A DNA stretch of 64,000 nucleotides from a plasmid, in sequence record OW849071.1, one strand, 5' to 3'. Under the pieces are notes generated by a model that worked only from the letters and a program-made list of their open reading frames with translations, was not told where the DNA came from and searched no databases. A program made the position numbers and the translations under genes. Position 1 is the stretch's first letter. The number at the start of each line of letters is the position of its first letter. Below, piece after piece: positions 4,085 to 11,645 of the stretch.

Positions 4085-5809
4085 TGGGTCTTCCGCAACT
4101 TAGGTGGAGTTGTTTAAGCCAGAGGGCTCATGACTCGTCGTCGCAGTAACTCGAAGCCAGCTCGACCGTACATCTGCCGTTTCAGCATCTTCAGGCGGTT
4201 TACATGGCCTTCCACAACGCCATTACTCCATCTGCTGCTTATCGCTTCGTGTATTGCTGTTGCATCCGCTTCCATACCGGCCGCAACACGCTGAAGGTCA
4301 ATGAGCCCACTTTGACTGACGTCAGAGAACCATTGATTTAACTGCGATTTATTCTTCGTTTTCAACATTCGATAGAAGTCGAGCGACAGCTGTTGCGCCA
4401 TTTTCAGTTGCGGTTCTTTCTGGCACATCGATTCGATGAAGCGGGATGCATAGTTTTCTTCTCCTCTGATCATTCGCCAGGGCATTAACCAGCGGCTTAC
4501 TCTGGATGCTGAGGGGAGTCGAACTGGGGCGATAACGGGACTGTTAACCTGCTTACGCCACTTAGCCACAGCATCCCTGACCGTCGTTTCGCTCCCGGTG
4601 AAGCCAGCATTTACCATCTCCCGCCATAGCTGCCCGGCATTATGGTTACCGTTTATCCGTTGTTCTTCCAGCCATTCCTGCCATGGTTCAAGTAACCCGG
4701 GTCTGGGTGGCTTAGTTGATATTTCAGGGAACGCTTTTGACTGTATCCACCGGCGAACCGTCACCCGGGACAGTCCGGTGATACGCGATATTTCTCTTAT
4801 CCCACAACCCTTTTTATGAAGAGAGTCTACCTCAGCCCAGCGCTGATACCGTTTGTCACGTCGCTCTCGTTTAATACGTTCAGGGCGACGTAACGTTGAC
4901 GTTGGCACCAAAGACGCTTCAGCATTCTGTTTTTTGGGGGGATAACTCGGTGGCCACCAGTCGTATCAATGGCATGTGTCTGTACATCATGCGCTCCAGC
5001 GCATCACCAATATTCTTCAGCAGATGCCAGCGATCGGCCACCTGTATTGCCTGCGGTGCACCATCGCGAGCAGCTAACGCATAGATCCCCCCACGATCGC
5101 GTGAGACGACCTGTATTTCTGGGTATTTTTTGAACCATGCCGCCAGAGTGCGTTGCTCCCGGCCTGGCAGTAACACCAGGGGGCGATGGGTATCAAGATT
5201 TACGATCAGTGTGCCGTACCTGTGGCCCCGATGCCATGCCCACTCGTCAATACCAACATGCCTGGTCCGGTTCTCTGTTTGTTCCGGAGCTTGAACCACT
5301 CTGCGCAGTAAAGTATCCGCGCTGATCTGTATTCCTGAAGCTACTGCAGCTCGTCTCCCTGCTTCACCACCTGCGATAAGCCCCAGCTGATGCTGCAGAT
5401 TTTTCAGCAATGCAGAAGACTGCTGCTGCGGGCCTGCAAAGGGAGCAAGCGATTCAGCAAAAATTTTACGTGAACAGGAAGGGTTACGACAGTACCAGTG
5501 CCGGATGGCGAAGACTAACCAGAGGGCCTGGCCTGAGCATGGAAGATGCTGTACTCGCCTCCGCCGGCAACTATGAACAGAATGACTGTGCGTGAGGCAC
5601 TCAGGACATGATGCCGTTTTACGTGTGGCGCGGAGATGGAGGGTTATTCCATCAGTACCAGTAATCTGTCGGCAGGTTTGCCACCCGCGCGGTAGCTGTA
5701 AAAGTCTCTTAAGTGAGGCCATTTTGTTATACATAACTTAAAACAGCTTAGATCCTTGTTAACTAAAAAGTTTCATCAATTTTTGTCCACCTAAGTTGCG
5801 GAAGACCCA
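4085..5809 (-). mobile_element. ISL3-family insertion sequence (~1.7 kb)
   Basis: Perfect 22-bp terminal inverted repeats GGGTCTTCCGCAACTTAGGTGG (4086-4107) and CCACCTAAGTTGCGGAAGACCC (5787-5808). They enclose an ISL3-type transposase (zf-ISL3, HTH, DDE). No matching 8-bp flanking direct repeat was found. Confidence 0.75.
4114..5734 (-). pseudogene. ISL3-family transposase split into two overlapping frames (ORFs 4919..5734 and 4114..4911)
   Basis: The N-terminal ORF has a CxxC zinc finger and the first part of the DDE domain (GIDEWAWHRGHRYGTLIVNLD). The C-terminal ORF continues the DDE domain (SNGVVEGHVNRLKMLKRQMYGRAGF). The two frames meet inside a C6A6 homopolymer tract (plus-strand T6G6 at 4930-4941). 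A 1-nt change there would fuse them. Confidence 0.7.
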
Positions 5810-5811
5810 CT

Positions 5812-6305
5812 TTTTACCCGTTGTTGACAGCGGAGCACACCTTAACCCCGTGGTAAGCCTGATTTTTTATCTGATCGGGGCCTGCTCTTTCAGGGCAACC
5901 ATGAATTACATCGTGGCTCAGTTGTTAGGGGCCGGCGCTGCTGCACTGTGCCTGAAGGCTGTCTTTGGCCACTCCCTGCTGGCCGGGGTGACCCGGGTCC
6001 ATATGGGGGTATCACTGTACAATGCCTTTTTCATCGAAGGTGTCATGACTTTTATTCTGATTATGAGCATCCTAACGACCAGAAACCCCGCGATTATCAG
6101 CATTGCTGTTTTTCTTGATGCTTTTATTGGCGGGCCGCTGACGGGGGCAAGCATGAACCCGGCCCGTAGCTTCGGGCCGGCATTGGCCATGGGATACTGG
6201 GATAATCAGTGGCTGTACTGGGCCGCTCCGCTGTCTGGCGGGCTTGTAGCTGTTGCGTGCTGCCAGCTGTTTATGCCGCAACTGAAGTCACCCTCACCGG
6301 AATAA
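5812..6305 (+). pseudogene. MIP/aquaporin-family channel gene lacking its N-terminal ~60 codons (truncated by the IS)
   Basis: Both NPA boxes are present (SGAHLNPVVS and GASMNPARSFGPA). NPARS indicates the aquaporin rather than the glycerol-facilitator type. The homologous frame starts about 5 codons upstream of the first NPA, right at the IS inverted repeat. Confidence 0.6.
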
Positions 6306-6354: not shown

Positions 6355-6882
6355 TCAGCAACCCACTGTCCGGCTACGCCTTTCCAGAATGAGAACATCT
6401 CTCCATTTTCCGTTCATTTCACCCACTTTTTCCCGGCAGCCGACTTCCCTGAATCCCTGGCTGCGATGTAAAGCAACACTGGCCTGGTTTTCCGGAAAGA
6501 TGCCAGCAAGTAGCGTCCAGAAACCCGCACTTTCCGAGCCCTTTATCAGCCCGGAGAGCAAAGCCCTGCCCGCGCCTTTTCCCTGAAAATGAGTACTGAC
6601 ATAAATGCTCAGCTCTGCGACACCGCGGTATGCATGCCGGCGGGAAAAAGGAGATAGCGCAGCCCATCCCACCACTCTGTTATCAACAGTGGCGACGTAG
6701 CGGCAGTCCTGAAGATGCCCTTCATTCCATTCCAGCCACTCAGGTGCTGCGGTCTGAAAGGTGGCGTTCCCTGTTGCAATTCCTTCCTGATAAATTTCCC
6801 TGACTGCACACCAGTCCTCTTCGTGCATTTTTCTAATGATGATCTCTGCCATTTCTCTGTACCGTATGTTTGCTGTATTCAT
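6355..6882 (-). CDS. GNAT-family N-acetyltransferase (phosphinothricin-acetyltransferase-like)
   Basis: Acetyl-CoA-binding motif (HFQGKGAGRALL) and the PAT-like N-terminus (IRKMHEEDWCAVREIYQEGI). Confidence 0.8.
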   Translation of the reverse strand: MNTANIRYREMAEIIIRKMHEEDWCAVREIYQEGIATGNATFQTAAPEWLEWNEGHLQDCRYVATVDNRVVGWAALSPFSRRHAYRGVAELSIYVSTHFQGKGAGRALLSGLIKGSESAGFWTLLAGIFPENQASVALHRSQGFREVGCREKVGEMNGKWRDVLILERRSRTVGC

Positions 6883-7127
6883 AGGCAGTCAGAAAACGAG
6901 CCTGCCTGGGCTTCCCGGCGGCGGGACATAATGCGCCCGTCAGCAAAGGATGAAGGTCATTTTATTTTTAGCGGGAATCGGTTTCTACTGTGACGGATTC
7001 ATATGCATTTTTCCATATATATTGTGACGTACCTCATTTCTGAGAGGTATAAACACCGATCATGTTTTCTCCATGCCGCGTAAGTGTAAGGCCCCGGAGA
7101 TGGAGTCATATTATGGACGTGGTTGCG

Positions 7128-7157
7128 CTCACTATATATTTCTATTATTCTGGAAAT
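7128..7157. promoter_or_regulatory. Inverted repeat TATTTCTAT...ATAGAAATA upstream of the plus-strand arsR (candidate operator)
   Basis: 9-bp arms separated by 12 nt, 27 nt upstream of the arsR start. ArsR/SmtB repressors bind imperfect palindromes in their own promoters. Confidence 0.3.
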
Positions 7158-7183
7158 ATAGAAATAAAATTACGAGGAATGGG

Positions 7184-7510
7184 ATGGAGCTGAAAATCGC
7201 CGCGATGGTGCTGAAAGAACTTGGCCACACCACTCGTCTCGATATTTACAAAACACTCGTTAAGGCCGGACGTCAGGGACTGCCCGTGGGGGAACTGCAG
7301 CAACATCTCGCCATTCCGGCCTCGACCCTGAGTCATCATCTTTCATCGCTGATATCCGTCTCACTGGTTCGCCAGGAAAGGCAGGGGAGAACACTGTTCT
7401 GCCACGCCTGTTATGACAACCTTGCTGCATTGATTGCCTTTCTGACAGAAGAGTGCTGTGCAGACGAATATGCCCCGCCTGGTTTTATGTCACCACCGGA
7501 GAAAAAATGA
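7184..7510 (+). CDS. arsR: ArsR/SmtB-family metalloregulator (C-terminal cysteine type)
   Basis: Winged HTH (TRLDIYKTL...[21 protein letters not shown]). It lacks the ELCVCD helix-3 motif but has C-terminal FCHAC and EECCAD cysteines. Start overlaps arsH (ATGA). Confidence 0.8.
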
Positions 7511-8220
7511 TTGCTGAACTGAAAAATGTTGTTCCTGAGCTGTTTGATACAGGTCTCACCGGGGTCCGCCTGGGTGTAAAGACAGTTGACCATCCTCCCC
7601 GGATCCTGATGTTGTACGGTTCCGTTCGAGAGCGGTCCTACAGCCGTCTGGCCACCGAAGAGGCTGCCCGGCTTCTTACCGCCATGGGTGCGGATGTCCG
7701 CATCTTTAATCCTTCCGGTCTCCCTCTGCCGGATGATGCAGCGGATACGCATCCCAGGGTTATGGAACTTCGCGAAATGGTGCGCTGGTCTGAAGGGATG
7801 GTATGGTGCTCTCCTGAACGTCATGGTGCGATGACCGGCATTATGAAAGCCCAGATTGACTGGATACCACTATCAGAGGGCGCAGTACGCCCTTCTCAGG
7901 GAAAAACCCTGGCCGTCATGCAGGTCTGCGGAGGCTCCCAGTCTTTCAATGCGGTAAACCAGATGCGTATTCTTGGCCGCTGGATGCGAATGATTACTAT
8001 ACCTAATCAATCCTCGGTAGCGAAAGCCTGGCAGGAGTTTGATGAAGACGGACGGATGAAACCATCCCCGTACTACGACCGTATTGTGGATGTAATGGAA
8101 GAGCTGATGAAGTTTACCCTGCTGACCCGGGAGTATGCAGCGTATCTCGTCGATCGCTACAGTGAACGTAAAGAGTCGGCAGAAGCACTTTCCCGGCGGG
8201 TGAATCAGAGCAAAATCTGA
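7507..8220 (+). CDS. arsH: ArsH, NADPH-dependent FMN reductase (organoarsenical oxidase)
   Basis: Flavodoxin-like fold motifs ([25 protein letters not shown]) and length ~237 aa. Positioned in the ars cluster. Confidence 0.85.
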
Positions 8221-8228
8221 GGGCTGGT

Positions 8229-8774
8229 ATGAGTGATGTAACGGCATTCAACAACTGCATGAGCGTGTTCTGGCAACAGCATGAAGCAGAGCTCTCCCGT
8301 TTTCTGGCATCAAGGACAGGCGATCGGGAGCAGGCAGCCGATCTGCTTCAGGAAGTCTTCCTGCGCGCCCGGGCCTGTGCAGACCGCTTCTGTGAAATGG
8401 AGAACCCGCGGGCCTGGCTGTACCGGACGGCGAGGAATCTGCTGACGGATGAGTACCGTGCCGCCAGAGACGTCGTGGTGCTGGAAGACGAGATCCCGCT
8501 GCCTGACGCCTTCCATGAGGCGGTTTCAACGCTGGAGATTTGCCTGCCTGAAACCCTGCAGGCCTTACCTGACGAGGAAAGATGGCTGATAGAAGAGGCC
8601 GATCTGAACCGGCGTCCCCAGCAGCGCCTGGCCGACGAGCTGGGGATCACGCTGACGGCGTTTAAGTCGCGCCTGCTTCGCGCCCGGAAACATCTGAAGA
8701 AGACGATGACGGAACTCTGCCAGGTGGAAGTGGATGATGCGTCTTCCGTCTGCTGCCATAAAAAAATGGATTAA
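8229..8774 (+). CDS. ECF-type sigma-70 family sigma factor with a short Cys-containing C-terminal tail
   Basis: Sigma70 region 2 (LLQEVFLRA...AWLYRTARNLLTDEYR) and region 4 (RLADELGITLTAFKSRLLRARKHL). Tail ...ELCQVEVDDASSVCCHKKMD. Located between arsH and arsD with 8-75 nt gaps, so apparently co-operonic. Confidence 0.75.
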   Translation: MSDVTAFNNCMSVFWQQHEAELSRFLASRTGDREQAADLLQEVFLRARACADRFCEMENPRAWLYRTARNLLTDEYRAARDVVVLEDEIPLPDAFHEAVSTLEICLPETLQALPDEERWLIEEADLNRRPQQRLADELGITLTAFKSRLLRARKHLKKTMTELCQVEVDDASSVCCHKKMD

Positions 8775-8802
8775 CCGCGCATCTTTTTCCCGCCTCACTC
8801 GT

Positions 8803-8842
8803 TTACCTCAGTGTAAAGCCCCATCATTCAACACTGAGGTAA
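8803..8842 (+). promoter_or_regulatory. 11-bp perfect inverted repeat (TTACCTCAGTG ... CACTGAGGTAA) whose right arm contains the arsD Shine-Dalgarno
   Basis: Arms at 8803-8813 and 8832-8842 with an 18-nt spacer. GAGGT lies in the right arm, and the arsD ATG is 8 nt downstream. Confidence 0.35.
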
Positions 8843-8849
8843 ACAGTCC

Positions 8850-9212
8850 ATGTCAAAAATTGAGATCTTTGAAGCCGCAGGCTGCTGTGCGACCAGCAGC
8901 GTCGTGGTCAGCGATGAAGCCGTCAAATGGAACGCCAGCGCCGAATGGGCGAAAAAGCATGGTGTGAATATTCAGCGTTACAGCTTGGCAAAGAACCCGC
9001 AGCAGTTCCTGAATACGCCCGTCATCAGGGCCTTCCTGAACACGTCAGGAATGGAGTCCCTTCCCGCTACCCTGCTTGACGGCCAGCTGGTGATGGCGGG
9101 CAAGCTCCCGTCCCGGGAAGATATCGCCCGCTGGGCCGGTATTTCCCTCACGCAGGACTGGAATGAAGACAGCACGCAGCCGCGCTGCTGCAGCATTCCC
9201 CGTATGCCTTAA
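8850..9212 (+). CDS. arsD: ArsD-like arsenic metallochaperone/repressor, variant
   Basis: Alignable to R773-type ArsD (GCC at 12-13, LLDGQLVMAGKLPSREDIARWAGISL). It lacks the third Cys of the CC...C motif. C-terminal CC pair retained. Confidence 0.8.
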   Translation: MSKIEIFEAAGCCATSSVVVSDEAVKWNASAEWAKKHGVNIQRYSLAKNPQQFLNTPVIRAFLNTSGMESLPATLLDGQLVMAGKLPSREDIARWAGISLTQDWNEDSTQPRCCSIPRMP

Positions 9213-9230
9213 TCCCGGAGGAGCTCAACA

Positions 9231-10987
9231 ATGACGATGCCATTTTTACAGAATATCCCCCCGTTTATCTTCTTCACCGGCAAAGGCGGCGTGGGGAAAA
9301 CCTCTCTGGCCTGCGCGACGGCGGTATGGCTGGCTGACCAGGGCCGGAGAACGCTTCTGGTCAGTACCGATCCGGCCTCCAATGTCGGTCAGGTCTTCAG
9401 CCAGACTGTGGGCCACCGGATCACTGGTATCCGCACCGTGGAAAACCTTGCGGCAATGGAAGTTGACCCGATGGCGGCCGCGCAGGCTTACCGCGATCGC
9501 GTGCTCGATCCTGTTCGTGAACTGATGCCTGCCGATGTCATCAGCAACATTGAAGAACAGCTTTCCGGTTCATGTACCACGGAGATCGCGGCGTTTGATG
9601 AATTTACCGCGCTGCTGACCAGTCATGAACTGCGCGAAAAATATGATCATATCGTCTTTGATACTGCACCAACCGGACACACCATCCGTATGCTTGAGCT
9701 GCCGGGCGCCTGGAGCGGGTACCTCGATGCACATCCTGATGCTGCGGCGAACCTCGGCCCTCTGGTGGGGCTGGAGAAACAACAGGACCAGTACGCTGAC
9801 GCAGTGAAAGCCCTCTCTGATACGGCACTCACGCGACTGGTTCTGGTTGCCCGCGCACAGGCGTCGACCCTGAAAGAGGTCTCCCATACCCACGAGGAGC
9901 TGTCGGCTATCGGTCTGCAGCATCAGCACCTTGCCATCAATGGCGTGCTGCCTCCCTTTGCCGGTGAACAGGATCCGCTGGCGCACAGTATTCTGGCGCG
10001 GGAGGAACGGGCCTTACGGGCCATGCCTGAAAACCTCGCGCATCTTCCCCGGTCGATGCTGTATCTGAAGCCTTTTAATCTGGTTGGTCTGGAAGCCCTG
10101 AGGGCGCTGTTTACAGAGAGCACACTTGTTCTGCCGGATCCGGGAGCCACGCTCACGACGGTCGATTTACCGGAGCTTGCCTCCCTGGTGGAGGACCTCA
10201 GCCGAGCGGGAAAAGGGCTGGTCATGACGATGGGAAAAGGGGGCGTGGGGAAAACCACGGTGGCGGCTGCGGTCGCGGTCTCGCTGGCCAGACGCGGTCA
10301 TAAAGTCCACCTGACCACCTCCGATCCGGCAGCCACCTGTCTTACACCCTGGATGGCTCGCTGCCAGGCCTTCAGGTCAGCCGTATCGATCCAAAAGCAG
10401 AGACTGAGCGCTATCGTCGCTTTGTGCTGGAAAATCAGGGAAAAGGTCTGGATGAAGAGGGACTGGCGGTACTGGAGGAAGATCTCCGTTCCCCCTGCAC
10501 CGAAGAGATTGCCGTGTTTCAGGCATTCTCCCGGATCATCAAAGAGGCCAACGACCATTTTGTCATTATAGACACTGCGCCCACCGGGCATACGCTGCTG
10601 TTGCTGGATGCAACCGGGGCCTATCACCGGGAAATGGTGCGCCAGATGGGGCAGGCTCACGATCACGTGATAACGCCAATGATGCAGCTGCAGGATCCGG
10701 AGAAGACCAGAGTCATTATCGTGACGCTTGCCGAAACCACGCCGGTACTGGAAGCGGCCGGGCTGCAGCAGGACTTACGCCGGGCCGGGATTGAACCCTG
10801 GGCGTGGGTCATCAATAACAGCCTCGCGGCCGCGAAGCCGTCCTCCCCGTTCCTGGTCACCCGTGCCCGTCGCGAACTGCCGCTGATCGACGACGTTGCC
10901 GGGCATTATGCACAGCGCATTGCCCTGACGCCACTGCTGAAGGACGACCCGGTAGGCGTGGACCTGCTGGCTGAAATGGCGGGCTGA
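9231..10987 (+). pseudogene. arsA: ArsA arsenite-stimulated ATPase with an internal 1-nt frameshift (ORFs 9231..10571 and 10424..10987)
   Basis: N-terminal half intact (P-loop GKGGVGKTS, DTAPTGH, a second GKGGVGKTT). After ...HLTTSDPAA the frame is lost. Comparison with the intact minus-strand copy shows one C missing (expected gcc cac ctg, observed gcc acc tg at ~10332-10338). The C-terminal half then continues in the other frame to 10987. Confidence 0.8.
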
Positions 10988-11108: not shown

Positions 11109-11645
11109 ATGCACATTATCAATGCTGAAGAGCAGCACATTCCCGCCATACGGCGCATTTACGCCCATCATGTCCTGCACGGCACAGGCAGCTTCGAGAC
11201 GGAACCCCCGGACACGCAGGAAATGCTTGCCCGGGTGAAAAATGTTCAGTCACGTGGATTTCCCTGGTATATCGCCCTGCAGGGGGAGACGGTCATCGGC
11301 TACTGTTATCTCTCCCGCTACCGCGAACGCCATGCCTACCGGTTTACGGTTGAAAATTCGGTGTACATCGATCCGGCTTATCAGCGGCAGGGGGGCGGAA
11401 AAGCCTTACTCGATCATGCCTTAACATGGGCCCGGTCTCAGGGATACCGCCAGATGATAGCGGTTGTGGGGGACAGTGCGAACGTCGCGTCTGTAGCGCT
11501 GCATCTTCGCGCCGGATTTACTGAAATCGGCACGCTGAAGGACATCGGTTTCAAGCATGGCCGCTGGCTGGACACGGTGTTGCTGCAGCGTCAGCTGGGA
11601 AAAGGGAGCTGTACGCTGCCGGACAGTCCGGTACCCGGACGCTGA
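11109..11645 (+). CDS. GNAT N-acetyltransferase of the phosphinothricin/arsinothricin-acetyltransferase type (ArsN-like)
   Basis: PAT-like motifs (IRRIYAHHVLHGTGSFE, AYQRQGGGKALL). Placed at the end of the plus-strand ars cluster. Confidence 0.7.
   Translation: MHIINAEEQHIPAIRRIYAHHVLHGTGSFETEPPDTQEMLARVKNVQSRGFPWYIALQGETVIGYCYLSRYRERHAYRFTVENSVYIDPAYQRQGGGKALLDHALTWARSQGYRQMIAVVGDSANVASVALHLRAGFTEIGTLKDIGFKHGRWLDTVLLQRQLGKGSCTLPDSPVPGR

Follow-up and report, generated by a model that had tools for sequence, protein, structure and literature searches.

A cysteine-tailed sigma factor in arsenic-resistance clusters: a possible second tier of arsenic gene regulation

Introduction

What is a sigma factor doing inside an arsenic-resistance operon? 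Resistance to arsenic ranks among the metal(loid) systems that have been studied best. In the literature that we searched on the regulation of ars genes, control is assigned to ArsR-type repressors, with ArsD, MarR-like proteins and two-component/RpoN systems as the exceptions, and a sigma factor inside ars operons is not mentioned. The question is raised by a stretch of 64,000 nucleotides (nt) from a plasmid (sequence record OW849071.1; hereafter the window), in which a gene for an extracytoplasmic function (ECF) sigma factor lies at 8229-8774 between arsH and arsD, as the last cistron of arsR-arsH-sigma. The original prediction, made from the letters alone, described an ECF sigma factor without an anti-sigma gene, whose tail bears a cysteine and a vicinal cysteine pair in a pattern resembling the As(III) sites of ArsR and ArsD. 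Here, the conserved cysteines, the gene context and the downstream DNA of the window sigma were compared with those of its relatives. The outcome inclines us, by a small degree, towards a sigma factor of the SigZ/ECF238 kind that works independently of an anti-sigma factor and forms a second regulatory tier in arsenic-resistance clusters.

The sigma factor and its family

8229-8774, plus strand: ECF sigma factor, by sequence of the SigZ/ECF238 kind, 181 amino acids (aa), start 8 nt past the arsH stop
8256-8258, 8391-8393, 8541-8543 and 8718-8720, plus strand: codons of the family-invariant cysteines C10, C55, C105 and C164, respectively
8751-8756, plus strand: codons of the accessory cysteines C175-C176

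In public records the gene is labelled just "sigma-70 family RNA polymerase sigma factor" or hypothetical. Its product has the Pfam domains Sigma70_r2 (PF04542, aa 15-80) and Sigma70_r4_2 (PF08281, aa 105-156) and no others, and matches TIGR02937 with 70.6 bits (cutoff 42.9); the presence of sigma2 and sigma4 domains only, with region 1.1 and region 3 absent, is the architecture of an ECF (group 4) sigma factor. The gene is real and under purifying selection, since the ratio of nonsynonymous to synonymous substitutions (dN/dS) is 0.10-0.12 against four chromosomal orthologs (~80% nucleotide identity). The open reading frame (ORF), the Pfam domains and the arsH and arsD neighbours thus bear out the original prediction of an ECF sigma with a cysteine tail inside an ars operon. 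The tail, ELCQVEVDDASSVCCH, carries C164, C175, C176 and H177 in the pattern C164-x10-CC-H, and the protein ends in ...TELCQVEVDDASSVCCHKKMD; the extension comprises residues 164-181 (~18 residues) with three cysteines. The whole protein has seven cysteines (C10, C50, C55, C105, C164, C175 and C176), with C10 and C55 in sigma2, C105 in region 4.1 and C164 at the end of region 4.2.

The best NCBIfam model for the protein was that of SigZ (TIGR02959, 138.3 bits), with an alignment that covers aa 15-179 and thus runs far enough for the tail to belong to the family model. Identity with SigZ as an equivalog was rejected (138.3 bits against a cutoff of 168.65 for TIGR02959, 119.4 against 212 for NF007215), and the window sigma would be a relative of SigZ rather than an equivalog. 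The reference classification joins the former groups ECF24 and ECF44 as ECF238, to which it ascribes a Cys-rich C-terminal extension of ~20 aa, a linker cysteine and the lack of an anti-sigma factor (Casas-Pastor et al. 2021). In the window sigma, the short cysteine-bearing extension is present, with its scaffold kept in 47 homologs and 147 representatives, the cysteine in the linker/region 4.1 is C105 (80/80 related loci), and the flanking genes are arsH and arsD, all of which points to the SigZ/ECF238 kind. It is probably a member of subgroup ECF238s2, for which the reference classification records a context of permease and thioredoxin that matches the one seen among the relatives. Membership in the strict CorE-like group (ECF44) was rejected, as the protein has neither the CxC motif nor the 6-Cys domain; no CxC motif was found in any of the 80 relatives.

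No anti-sigma-like gene adjoins the sigma gene in the window or at the 80 related loci, in agreement with the original prediction. The only recurrent unidentified neighbour ("unk145", 17 loci) was considered as a hidden anti-sigma factor and rejected: it has no Pfam match, and as a shadow ORF it runs antisense to a gene of thioredoxin-like (ArsE/MTH895-like) type.

The AlphaFold2 model of the sigma has confident domains, with a mean predicted local distance difference test (pLDDT) score of 83.2. Foldseek and PDB sequence searches returned generic ECF sigmas only, the PDB alignments stop at residue 162, and none of the solved structures among these matches covers the tail.

Conservation of the cysteines

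Conservation was assessed in 47 homologs and in 80 species-level genomic loci at 38-81% identity to the window sigma. C55, C105 and C164 were each present in 80/80 loci, and C10 in 79/80 plus one alignment gap. C175 was found in 63/80 and C176 in 59/80 loci, C50 in the window protein only, and position 177 is variable among the relatives (H, F or Y). The C175-C176 pair has been lost in 21/80 relatives, belonging to ~8 separate lineages. The tail scaffold, C-x-[VI]-x-[FV]-D-x2-G-x-[VI], is kept down to ~30% identity and the tail is therefore no chance feature. Of the tail as originally predicted, the scaffold and C164 stand as conserved parts and all three cysteines are present in the window sigma; the vicinal pair is variable (59-63/80 relatives), and the idea that C164, C175 and C176 are the conserved core, as an ArsR/ArsD-like triad, fails on the loss of the pair in lineages with full ars clusters.

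An exhaustive profile search yielded 849 representative clusters (50% identity) at E <= 1e-30. Among the top 150 of these 849 representatives C164 is 99% and C105 83% conserved, and the combined C10, C55, C105 and C164 signature is confined to the window clade (33/134 full-length representatives). Most other family members have the pattern CC(163-164)-x-F-E-F-D-x2-G-x-V-I-D-Y...C-x1-2-C. The family-wide core thus consists of C105, C164 and the beta-hairpin scaffold, with extra thiols that come from sigma2 in the window clade and from a longer tail in other clades. These different cysteine arrangements accompany different arsenic effectors between the clades.

A variant sigma without CC at 163-164 was seen at locus L129 (4001-4489), with the tail ...EEYHVKLDSYGNVIRCENRLPCGCQ; it lies between ArsR-like and ArsN1a-like acetyltransferase genes and has a match to the promoter motif described below (18.3 bits) downstream.

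Arsenic gene context of the relatives

Gene neighbourhoods were counted within 6 kb around the sigma gene at the 80 loci, anchored by tblastn and with Pfam-confirmed references. Canonical ars genes (Acr3, thioredoxin-type ArsC, ArsA/D, ArsB, ArsH) were found at 45/80 loci and an ArsP_1 permease (PF03773; 248 bits in a representative) at 52/80, so that 69/80 loci had one or the other, and 5/11 of the exceptions are short contigs. The usual layout is arsR-arsC-acr3-[sigma]-arsP-(thioredoxin-like), in which the sigma typically forms the final cistron after arsR-arsC-acr3. Between the preceding ars stop codon and the sigma Cys10 codon the median distance is 28 nt (39 loci), i.e., the sigma gene begins practically where that ars gene stops.

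The association extends beyond the window clade. At 3/3 informative loci, out-group members with another cysteine pattern adjoin the arsenite methyltransferase gene arsM (NF008823, 302-335 bits against a cutoff of 263). A metagenome scan covered the Cys-tail family together with ordinary ECF sigmas as an internal control, the classes being assigned by a cysteine-count rule. Sister-clade members of the Cys-tail family had an ars gene at 23/46 loci, compared with 0/34 for the ordinary ECF control (Fisher p = 1.3e-7), and arsM at 13/46 compared with 0/34 (Fisher p = 4e-4); when only loci of at least 5 kb were considered, the counts for any ars gene were 14/22 for the Cys-tail family and 0/13 for the control. 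On these counts the arsenic linkage is ancestral and family-wide, which strengthens the arsenic idea of the original prediction. Its alternative, that a group with a regulatory C-terminal extension had been recruited into this island, holds for the group (TIGR02959, ECF238); recent recruitment was rejected on the context of the 80 loci, where the ars linkage is clade-wide. A search of the literature for ECF sigmas linked to ArsP, ArsM or ars operons gave no relevant paper.

Several individual loci deserve description. Sister-clade sigmas with the tail CC-x-F-E-F-D...C-x-C directly adjoin arsM at loci L081, L084-L088, L092, L093, L097, L100, L103, L108, L117 and L124, in many cases as a pair (sigma-arsM or arsM-sigma) with the same promoter motif, and L100 unites arsD-arsA-acr3-sigma-arsP-arsM in one locus. 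In the representative L052 (2162-3744) an ArsP-family permease with a TPFCSCS motif lies 3' of the promoter, after which come a small gene of thioredoxin-like type (GTGCTNC motif, MTH895/ArsE-like) and one for a short membrane protein, a context that agrees with the permease and thioredoxin recorded for ECF238s2. A Zetaproteobacteria/Mariprofundus subclade (L015, L016, L019, L047, L061 and L080) has the full cysteine signature and lacks ars genes within reach; in L080 the sigma is followed by a gene for a Crp/Fnr-type regulator (cNMP_binding and HTH_Crp_2), L016 and L047 look similar, and these sigmas may serve a different regulon. Two paralogous sigma genes of the family lie less than 3 kb apart in the same locus in both L045 and L055.

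A promoter motif downstream of the sigma gene

8779-8804, plus strand: predicted ECF-type promoter GCATCTTTTT-N11-CGTTT from a position weight matrix (PWM); -35 block 8779-8788, -10 block 8800-8804

Aligned post-sigma DNA of the relatives contains a two-block motif, TGCATCCTTTT-N11-TTCGTCTCC (TGCATCCTTTT-N11-TTCGTCT type), which lies 3-200 nt past the sigma stop codon on the same strand at 40/80 loci. Its regular expression had 70 matches in 1.2 Mb, whereas shuffled sequence gave 1.03 on average (at most 3), and the first ORF after the motif encodes an ArsP-family permease in 35/70 cases and an ArsD-like or thioredoxin-like protein in 8/70, the four enteric arsD genes included. A -10 block of CGTC type, blocks at a fixed spacing and a spacer that varies are the hallmarks of an ECF promoter, and the sigma family is the sole constant partner of the motif. 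With a PWM trained on sites of non-enteric relatives only, the best site in the window is 8773-8812, which scored 27.0 bits and ranked at the top of 127,922 positions, the runner-up having 2.0 bits; no other copy lies in the window. The promoter predicted within it lies 5 nt past the sigma stop and 45 nt before the arsD ATG, and arsD is the first gene 3' of it.

The PWM recognized no site upstream of arsR, and the one further, weak match that it gave in the window, of 2.0 bits at 7330-7369, is located inside the arsR ORF. Autoregulation of the sigma was rejected on the absence of the motif upstream of arsR. Thus, the search for ECF-type motifs that had been suggested for 8775-8850 and for the region upstream of arsR was positive for the former and negative for the latter, and the notion of a self-regulated sigma does not hold at the level of transcription, as the cognate-looking promoter is downstream and an ArsR-type repressor heads the operon.

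In the metagenome scan a PWM site was found beside the sister-clade sigmas at 17/46 loci and beside the control sigmas at 0/34 (p = 1.8e-5); where sigma and arsM form an operon, this site frequently precedes the sigma gene. The ECF classification, which assumed autoregulation and searched upstream regions, reported no motif for ECF238, and the motif was probably missed because only upstream regions were searched.

Neighbouring elements in the window

7137-7166, strand not assigned: candidate ArsR operator, 14-nt inverted repeat TATTTCTATTATTC / GAAATATAGAAATA, 18 nt upstream of the arsR start
7184-7510, plus strand: arsR, ArsR/SmtB metalloregulator of 108 aa (NF033788, 63.3 bits, cutoff 55; Pfam HTH_20)
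7507-8220, plus strand: arsH, organoarsenical oxidase family, NADPH-dependent FMN reductase (TIGR02690, 401.6 bits, cutoff 292)
8801-8844, plus strand: perfect 14-bp inverted repeat GTTTACCTCAGTGT ... ACACTGAGGTAAAC, arms 8801-8814 and 8831-8844
8850-9212, plus strand: arsD-family metallochaperone gene (PF06953, 100.3 bits; NF033727, 80.6 bits, below the cutoff of 90)
9231-10987, plus strand: arsA, disrupted; ORFs 9231-10571 and 10424-10987, 1-nt deletion near 10334
11109-11645, plus strand: GNAT acetyltransferase resembling ArsN1 family B (NF040504, 147.3 bits, below the cutoff of 210)

The repeat at 7137-7166 is, by its position, a candidate operator for ArsR in front of the arsR-arsH-sigma operon. 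The ArsR protein has Cys73, Cys76 and the vicinal pair Cys91-Cys92. The arsR stop overlaps the arsH start (ATGA, 7507-7510), and from this overlap and the 8-nt gap between arsH and the sigma gene the three genes appear to be translationally coupled.

The repeat at 8801-8844 shares positions with both the -10 block and the start site expected for the predicted promoter, and its 3' arm holds the arsD Shine-Dalgarno sequence GAGG (8836-8839). The RNA hairpin has a predicted folding energy of -24.6 kcal/mol (z = -5.7). In the enteric orthologs (L001-L004) the arms are conserved and the loop varies, and no obvious counterpart was found in distant relatives. An intrinsic terminator was rejected, as a T-run is absent and the terminator scan was empty there; alternatively, the repeat may be a repressor operator.

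The ArsD-family protein has kept Cys12-Cys13, lacks Cys18, the third cysteine of the metallochaperone, and carries a C-terminal CC (RCCSIPRMP). Downstream, arsA is intact (585 aa) in the chromosomal relatives of Hafnia, Klebsiella, Citrobacter and Kluyvera (L001-L004). The gene table of plasmid pBIC1a likewise lists two "arsenical pump-driving ATPase" ORFs at the arsA position. Going by strand and position, the acetyltransferase gene 11109-11645 is the last gene of the putative sigma-dependent unit. A second ars operon on the minus strand (arsC, arsB, arsA...) extends from 11678.

The sigma operon is bracketed by two GNAT acetyltransferase genes, 11109-11645 on the plus strand and 6355-6882 on the minus strand, of which the latter resembles the arsinothricin-resistance protein ArsN1a (148.4 bits, cutoff 170). 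An ISL3-family transposase gene is broken into two ORFs, which match positions 1-102 and 90-239 of the DDE_Tnp_ISL3 profile, and the MIP/aquaporin gene beside it lacks its N-terminal part (profile 65-219 of 222). These ISL3 pieces and the aquaporin, at 4114-5734 on the minus and 5796-6305 on the plus strand, have the appearance of a scar left by an insertion at the border of the ars cluster.

Plasmid distribution and expression

The DNA of window positions 7000-9300 matched 1,381 plasmid records, mostly from Klebsiella; coverage of the query reached 80% or more in 989, and identity was 99% or higher in 931. A version with ~80% identity is found on chromosomes and plasmids of E. coli. The sigma gene lies on clinical plasmids that are widespread (pKPN3-like, pESI-like), with ~1,000 sequenced plasmids carrying it.

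Plasmid pBIC1a is described as pKPN3-like, and RNA-seq data are available for it in E. coli without arsenic (PMC6286996). We matched it to the window by the order of its gene table, i.e., ISL3-type element, aquaporin, acetyltransferase, arsR, arsH, hypothetical protein, arsD and split arsA. The published values, in RPKM (read counts normalized per kilobase and per million reads mapped), are 21 for arsR, 39 for arsH, 47 for the sigma gene, 9 for arsD and 4 for arsA (PMC6286996). The drop after the sigma gene indicates a transcript boundary at the sigma-arsD junction, and the ratio of 47 to 9 indicates that sigma mRNA alone leaves arsD off.

Proposed mechanism and alternatives

In the regulatory tier that we propose, the sigma would be made only when a trivalent arsenical releases the ArsR-type repressor, since it is the last cistron of arsR-arsH-sigma. 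Comparison with the relatives suggests that it would then direct RNA polymerase to the promoter at 8779-8804, the targets being arsD-arsA-(arsN-like) in the window, an ArsP-family permease and a thioredoxin-like gene in most relatives, and arsM in the sister clade. The transcript boundary seen in pBIC1a fits this. If CorE and CorE2 are a guide, the activity of the sigma is probably gated by arsenicals bound to its own thiols, for which C10, C55, C105 and C164 would be central and C175-C176 an accessory, lineage-variable ligand set; the likely ligand would be a trivalent arsenical, As(III) or methylarsenite. More speculatively, the 14-bp hairpin could hide the arsD ribosome-binding site in transcripts that read through from upstream and leave it free in transcripts begun at the sigma promoter. 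The furthest-reaching form of this proposal, which we offer tentatively and with some doubt, is that the Cys-tail family of SigZ/ECF238 consists largely of one-protein arsenic sensors, which would bind trivalent arsenicals on thiolates centred on C105 and C164, with sigma2 (C10, C55) or tail residues as further ligands, and would switch on a dedicated class of promoters before arsP, arsM or arsDA.

A number of points weigh against these proposals. The As(III)-like vicinal pair is dispensable, and the members without it include complete arsR-arsC-arsD-arsA-acr3 clusters. A second sensor is not logically required, because ArsR already senses arsenic. Some relatives have CDF transporters or CopR-type regulators as neighbours, and the permease family obtains scores with models of Cu/Zn efflux (SO_0444) and with the SaoE model as well; therefore, the ligand could be another soft metal. 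The pairing of sigma and promoter is predicted from their co-occurrence, the -10 block of the window (CGTTTAC) deviates from the consensus CGTCTCC, and arsA downstream of the predicted promoter is a pseudogene in the window. In the AlphaFold2 model, the predicted template modelling score is 0.45 and residues 174-181 have a pLDDT below 50.

One alternative is a plain relay or amplifier, in which ArsR does all the arsenic sensing, the invariant cysteines form a structural Zn(II) site, and the sigma turns derepression upstream into strong or delayed transcription of the effector genes downstream. An ArsR-type repressor heads the operon in the window and in many relatives, the sigma is translationally coupled to the upstream ars genes, the four invariant cysteines would fit a structural Zn(Cys)4 site, and the As(III)-like vicinal pair is dispensable. 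In CorE and CorE2, the sole relatives in which such cysteines were tested, however, they are regulatory beyond being structural, the excess of sigma over arsD and arsA transcripts in pBIC1a without arsenic suggests an inactive sigma (as far as mRNA levels tell), and the cysteine arrangement differs systematically between clades with different effectors, which is unexpected for a purely structural site. We regard such a relay as unlikely, though deserving of serious consideration. The thiols could also act as a redox switch, with disulfides that answer the thiol depletion or oxidative stress that arsenicals cause indirectly. Cysteine-based switching is common in ECF systems, e.g., in zinc-binding anti-sigma factors (PMC6851896), and genes for OsmC-like peroxiredoxin, thioredoxin and rhodanese occur at several related loci; against this, the linkage is specific to Acr3, ArsC, ArsA/D, ArsH, ArsM and ArsP and not to general oxidative-stress genes, and no oxidative-stress regulon genes were found downstream of the promoter motif across its matches, which makes this explanation improbable.

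We give still less credence to a sensor of another soft metal (Cd, Zn or Cu) whose gene just happens to share metal-resistance islands with arsenic genes. Besides the CDF and CopR-type neighbours and the permease scores, it could draw on the studied ECF238-type members, which answer to Cu or Cd/Zn; the sigma, however, sits inside ars operons at the short distance given above, it is associated repeatedly, and in distant phyla, with three arsenic effectors that are unrelated to each other, and the CxC that defines CorE is absent. Finally, the arsA frameshift downstream of the promoter, the truncated aquaporin and split ISL3 transposase beside the cluster, and a second, intact arsRDABC operon alongside might suggest a decaying remnant that has no current function in the window plasmid. 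That is hardly credible for a locus in which the sigma ORF, promoter, hairpin and arsD are all intact, in which the sigma gene has a dN/dS of ~0.1 against orthologs with an intact arsA, and which is transcribed in pBIC1a.

Implications

The regulatory tier outlined here amounts to a testable circuit, leading from repressor to sigma to dedicated promoter to effector, and it recurs in Proteobacteria and other phyla with three unrelated effectors, namely a permease (ArsP), a methyltransferase (ArsM) and pump components (ArsD-ArsA). It suggests an undescribed layer of arsenic gene control that is carried also on clinical plasmids, and would give ECF238 a likely biological role and a target promoter. 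If the family members are indeed one-protein sensors, they would form a new class of arsenic-responsive regulators beside ArsR, present on ~1,000 sequenced plasmids of Klebsiella and other enterobacteria. The clades offer a natural series of cysteine arrangements for the study of ligand specificity in on-board sigma sensors, and the compact pair of sigma and promoter could serve as an orthogonal arsenic-responsive switch or as a biosensor part.

Comparison with known systems

The studied members of ECF238 are CorE (Cu), CorE2 (Cd/Zn) and SigZ, of which SigZ of Bacillus subtilis (ECF238 s9) is poorly understood. CorE and CorE2 of Myxococcus xanthus (former ECF44) resemble the window sigma in having only sigma2 and sigma4, no anti-sigma factor, cysteines between sigma2 and sigma4.2 and a cysteine-bearing C-terminal extension, as well as little or no autoregulation; in both, these cysteines are the on-board sensor and their arrangement sets the ligand specificity (PMC3107203, PMC4937300, PMC6851896). 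In CorE2, whose metal specificity is set in this way, the linker CxC and the C-terminal cysteines are both essential, and a single cysteine change switches the metal (PMC4937300). The window sigma differs from these in that it has a lone linker cysteine, C105 (LEICLPE), in place of the CxC that the CorE-like group conserves strictly, a tail of ~18 residues with three cysteines instead of a domain of 21-50 residues with typically six, two extra invariant sigma2 cysteines (C10 and C55) in its clade, and a genomic context of arsenic rather than Cu/Cd/Zn.

With ECF238/SigZ in general the window sigma shares the ~20-aa cysteine tail, the linker cysteine and the lack of an anti-sigma factor. The published description gives the group no conserved promoter motif and an almost unconserved context (Casas-Pastor et al. 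2021), and a link to arsenic is absent from it; by contrast, we found a conserved promoter, mostly 3' of the sigma gene, and an arsenic context that is family-wide. In the window, the genes that follow the sigma are arsD-arsA, not a permease gene.

The As(III) S3 sites of ArsR (R773 and Acidithiobacillus types) and ArsD consist of a vicinal cysteine pair and a third cysteine within ~10 residues. They resemble C164-x10-C175-C176 of the window sigma, in which, however, the fold is unrelated, the vicinal pair is kept in only 59-63/80 relatives, and four dispersed cysteines are the invariant ones.

OrbS of Burkholderia cenocepacia (ECF243), which senses iron (Fe) on board through its C-terminal Cys-rich region (PMC9023288), is likewise an ECF sigma without an anti-sigma. 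It belongs to another ECF group, metal binding to that region is inhibitory, and its tail has no sequence relationship with that of the window sigma.

Because CorE (Cu), CorE2 (Cd/Zn) and OrbS (Fe) are known, on-board metal sensing by the cysteines of an ECF sigma is an already established kind of mechanism, and the original prediction went too far in taking it for an undescribed one. The arsenic-operon variant is not described in the literature searched, and what is new in it compared with the known kind is a sigma embedded in the ars operon, a four-cysteine signature, a dedicated predicted promoter just 3' of the gene, and a family-wide association with ArsP, ArsM or ArsDA.

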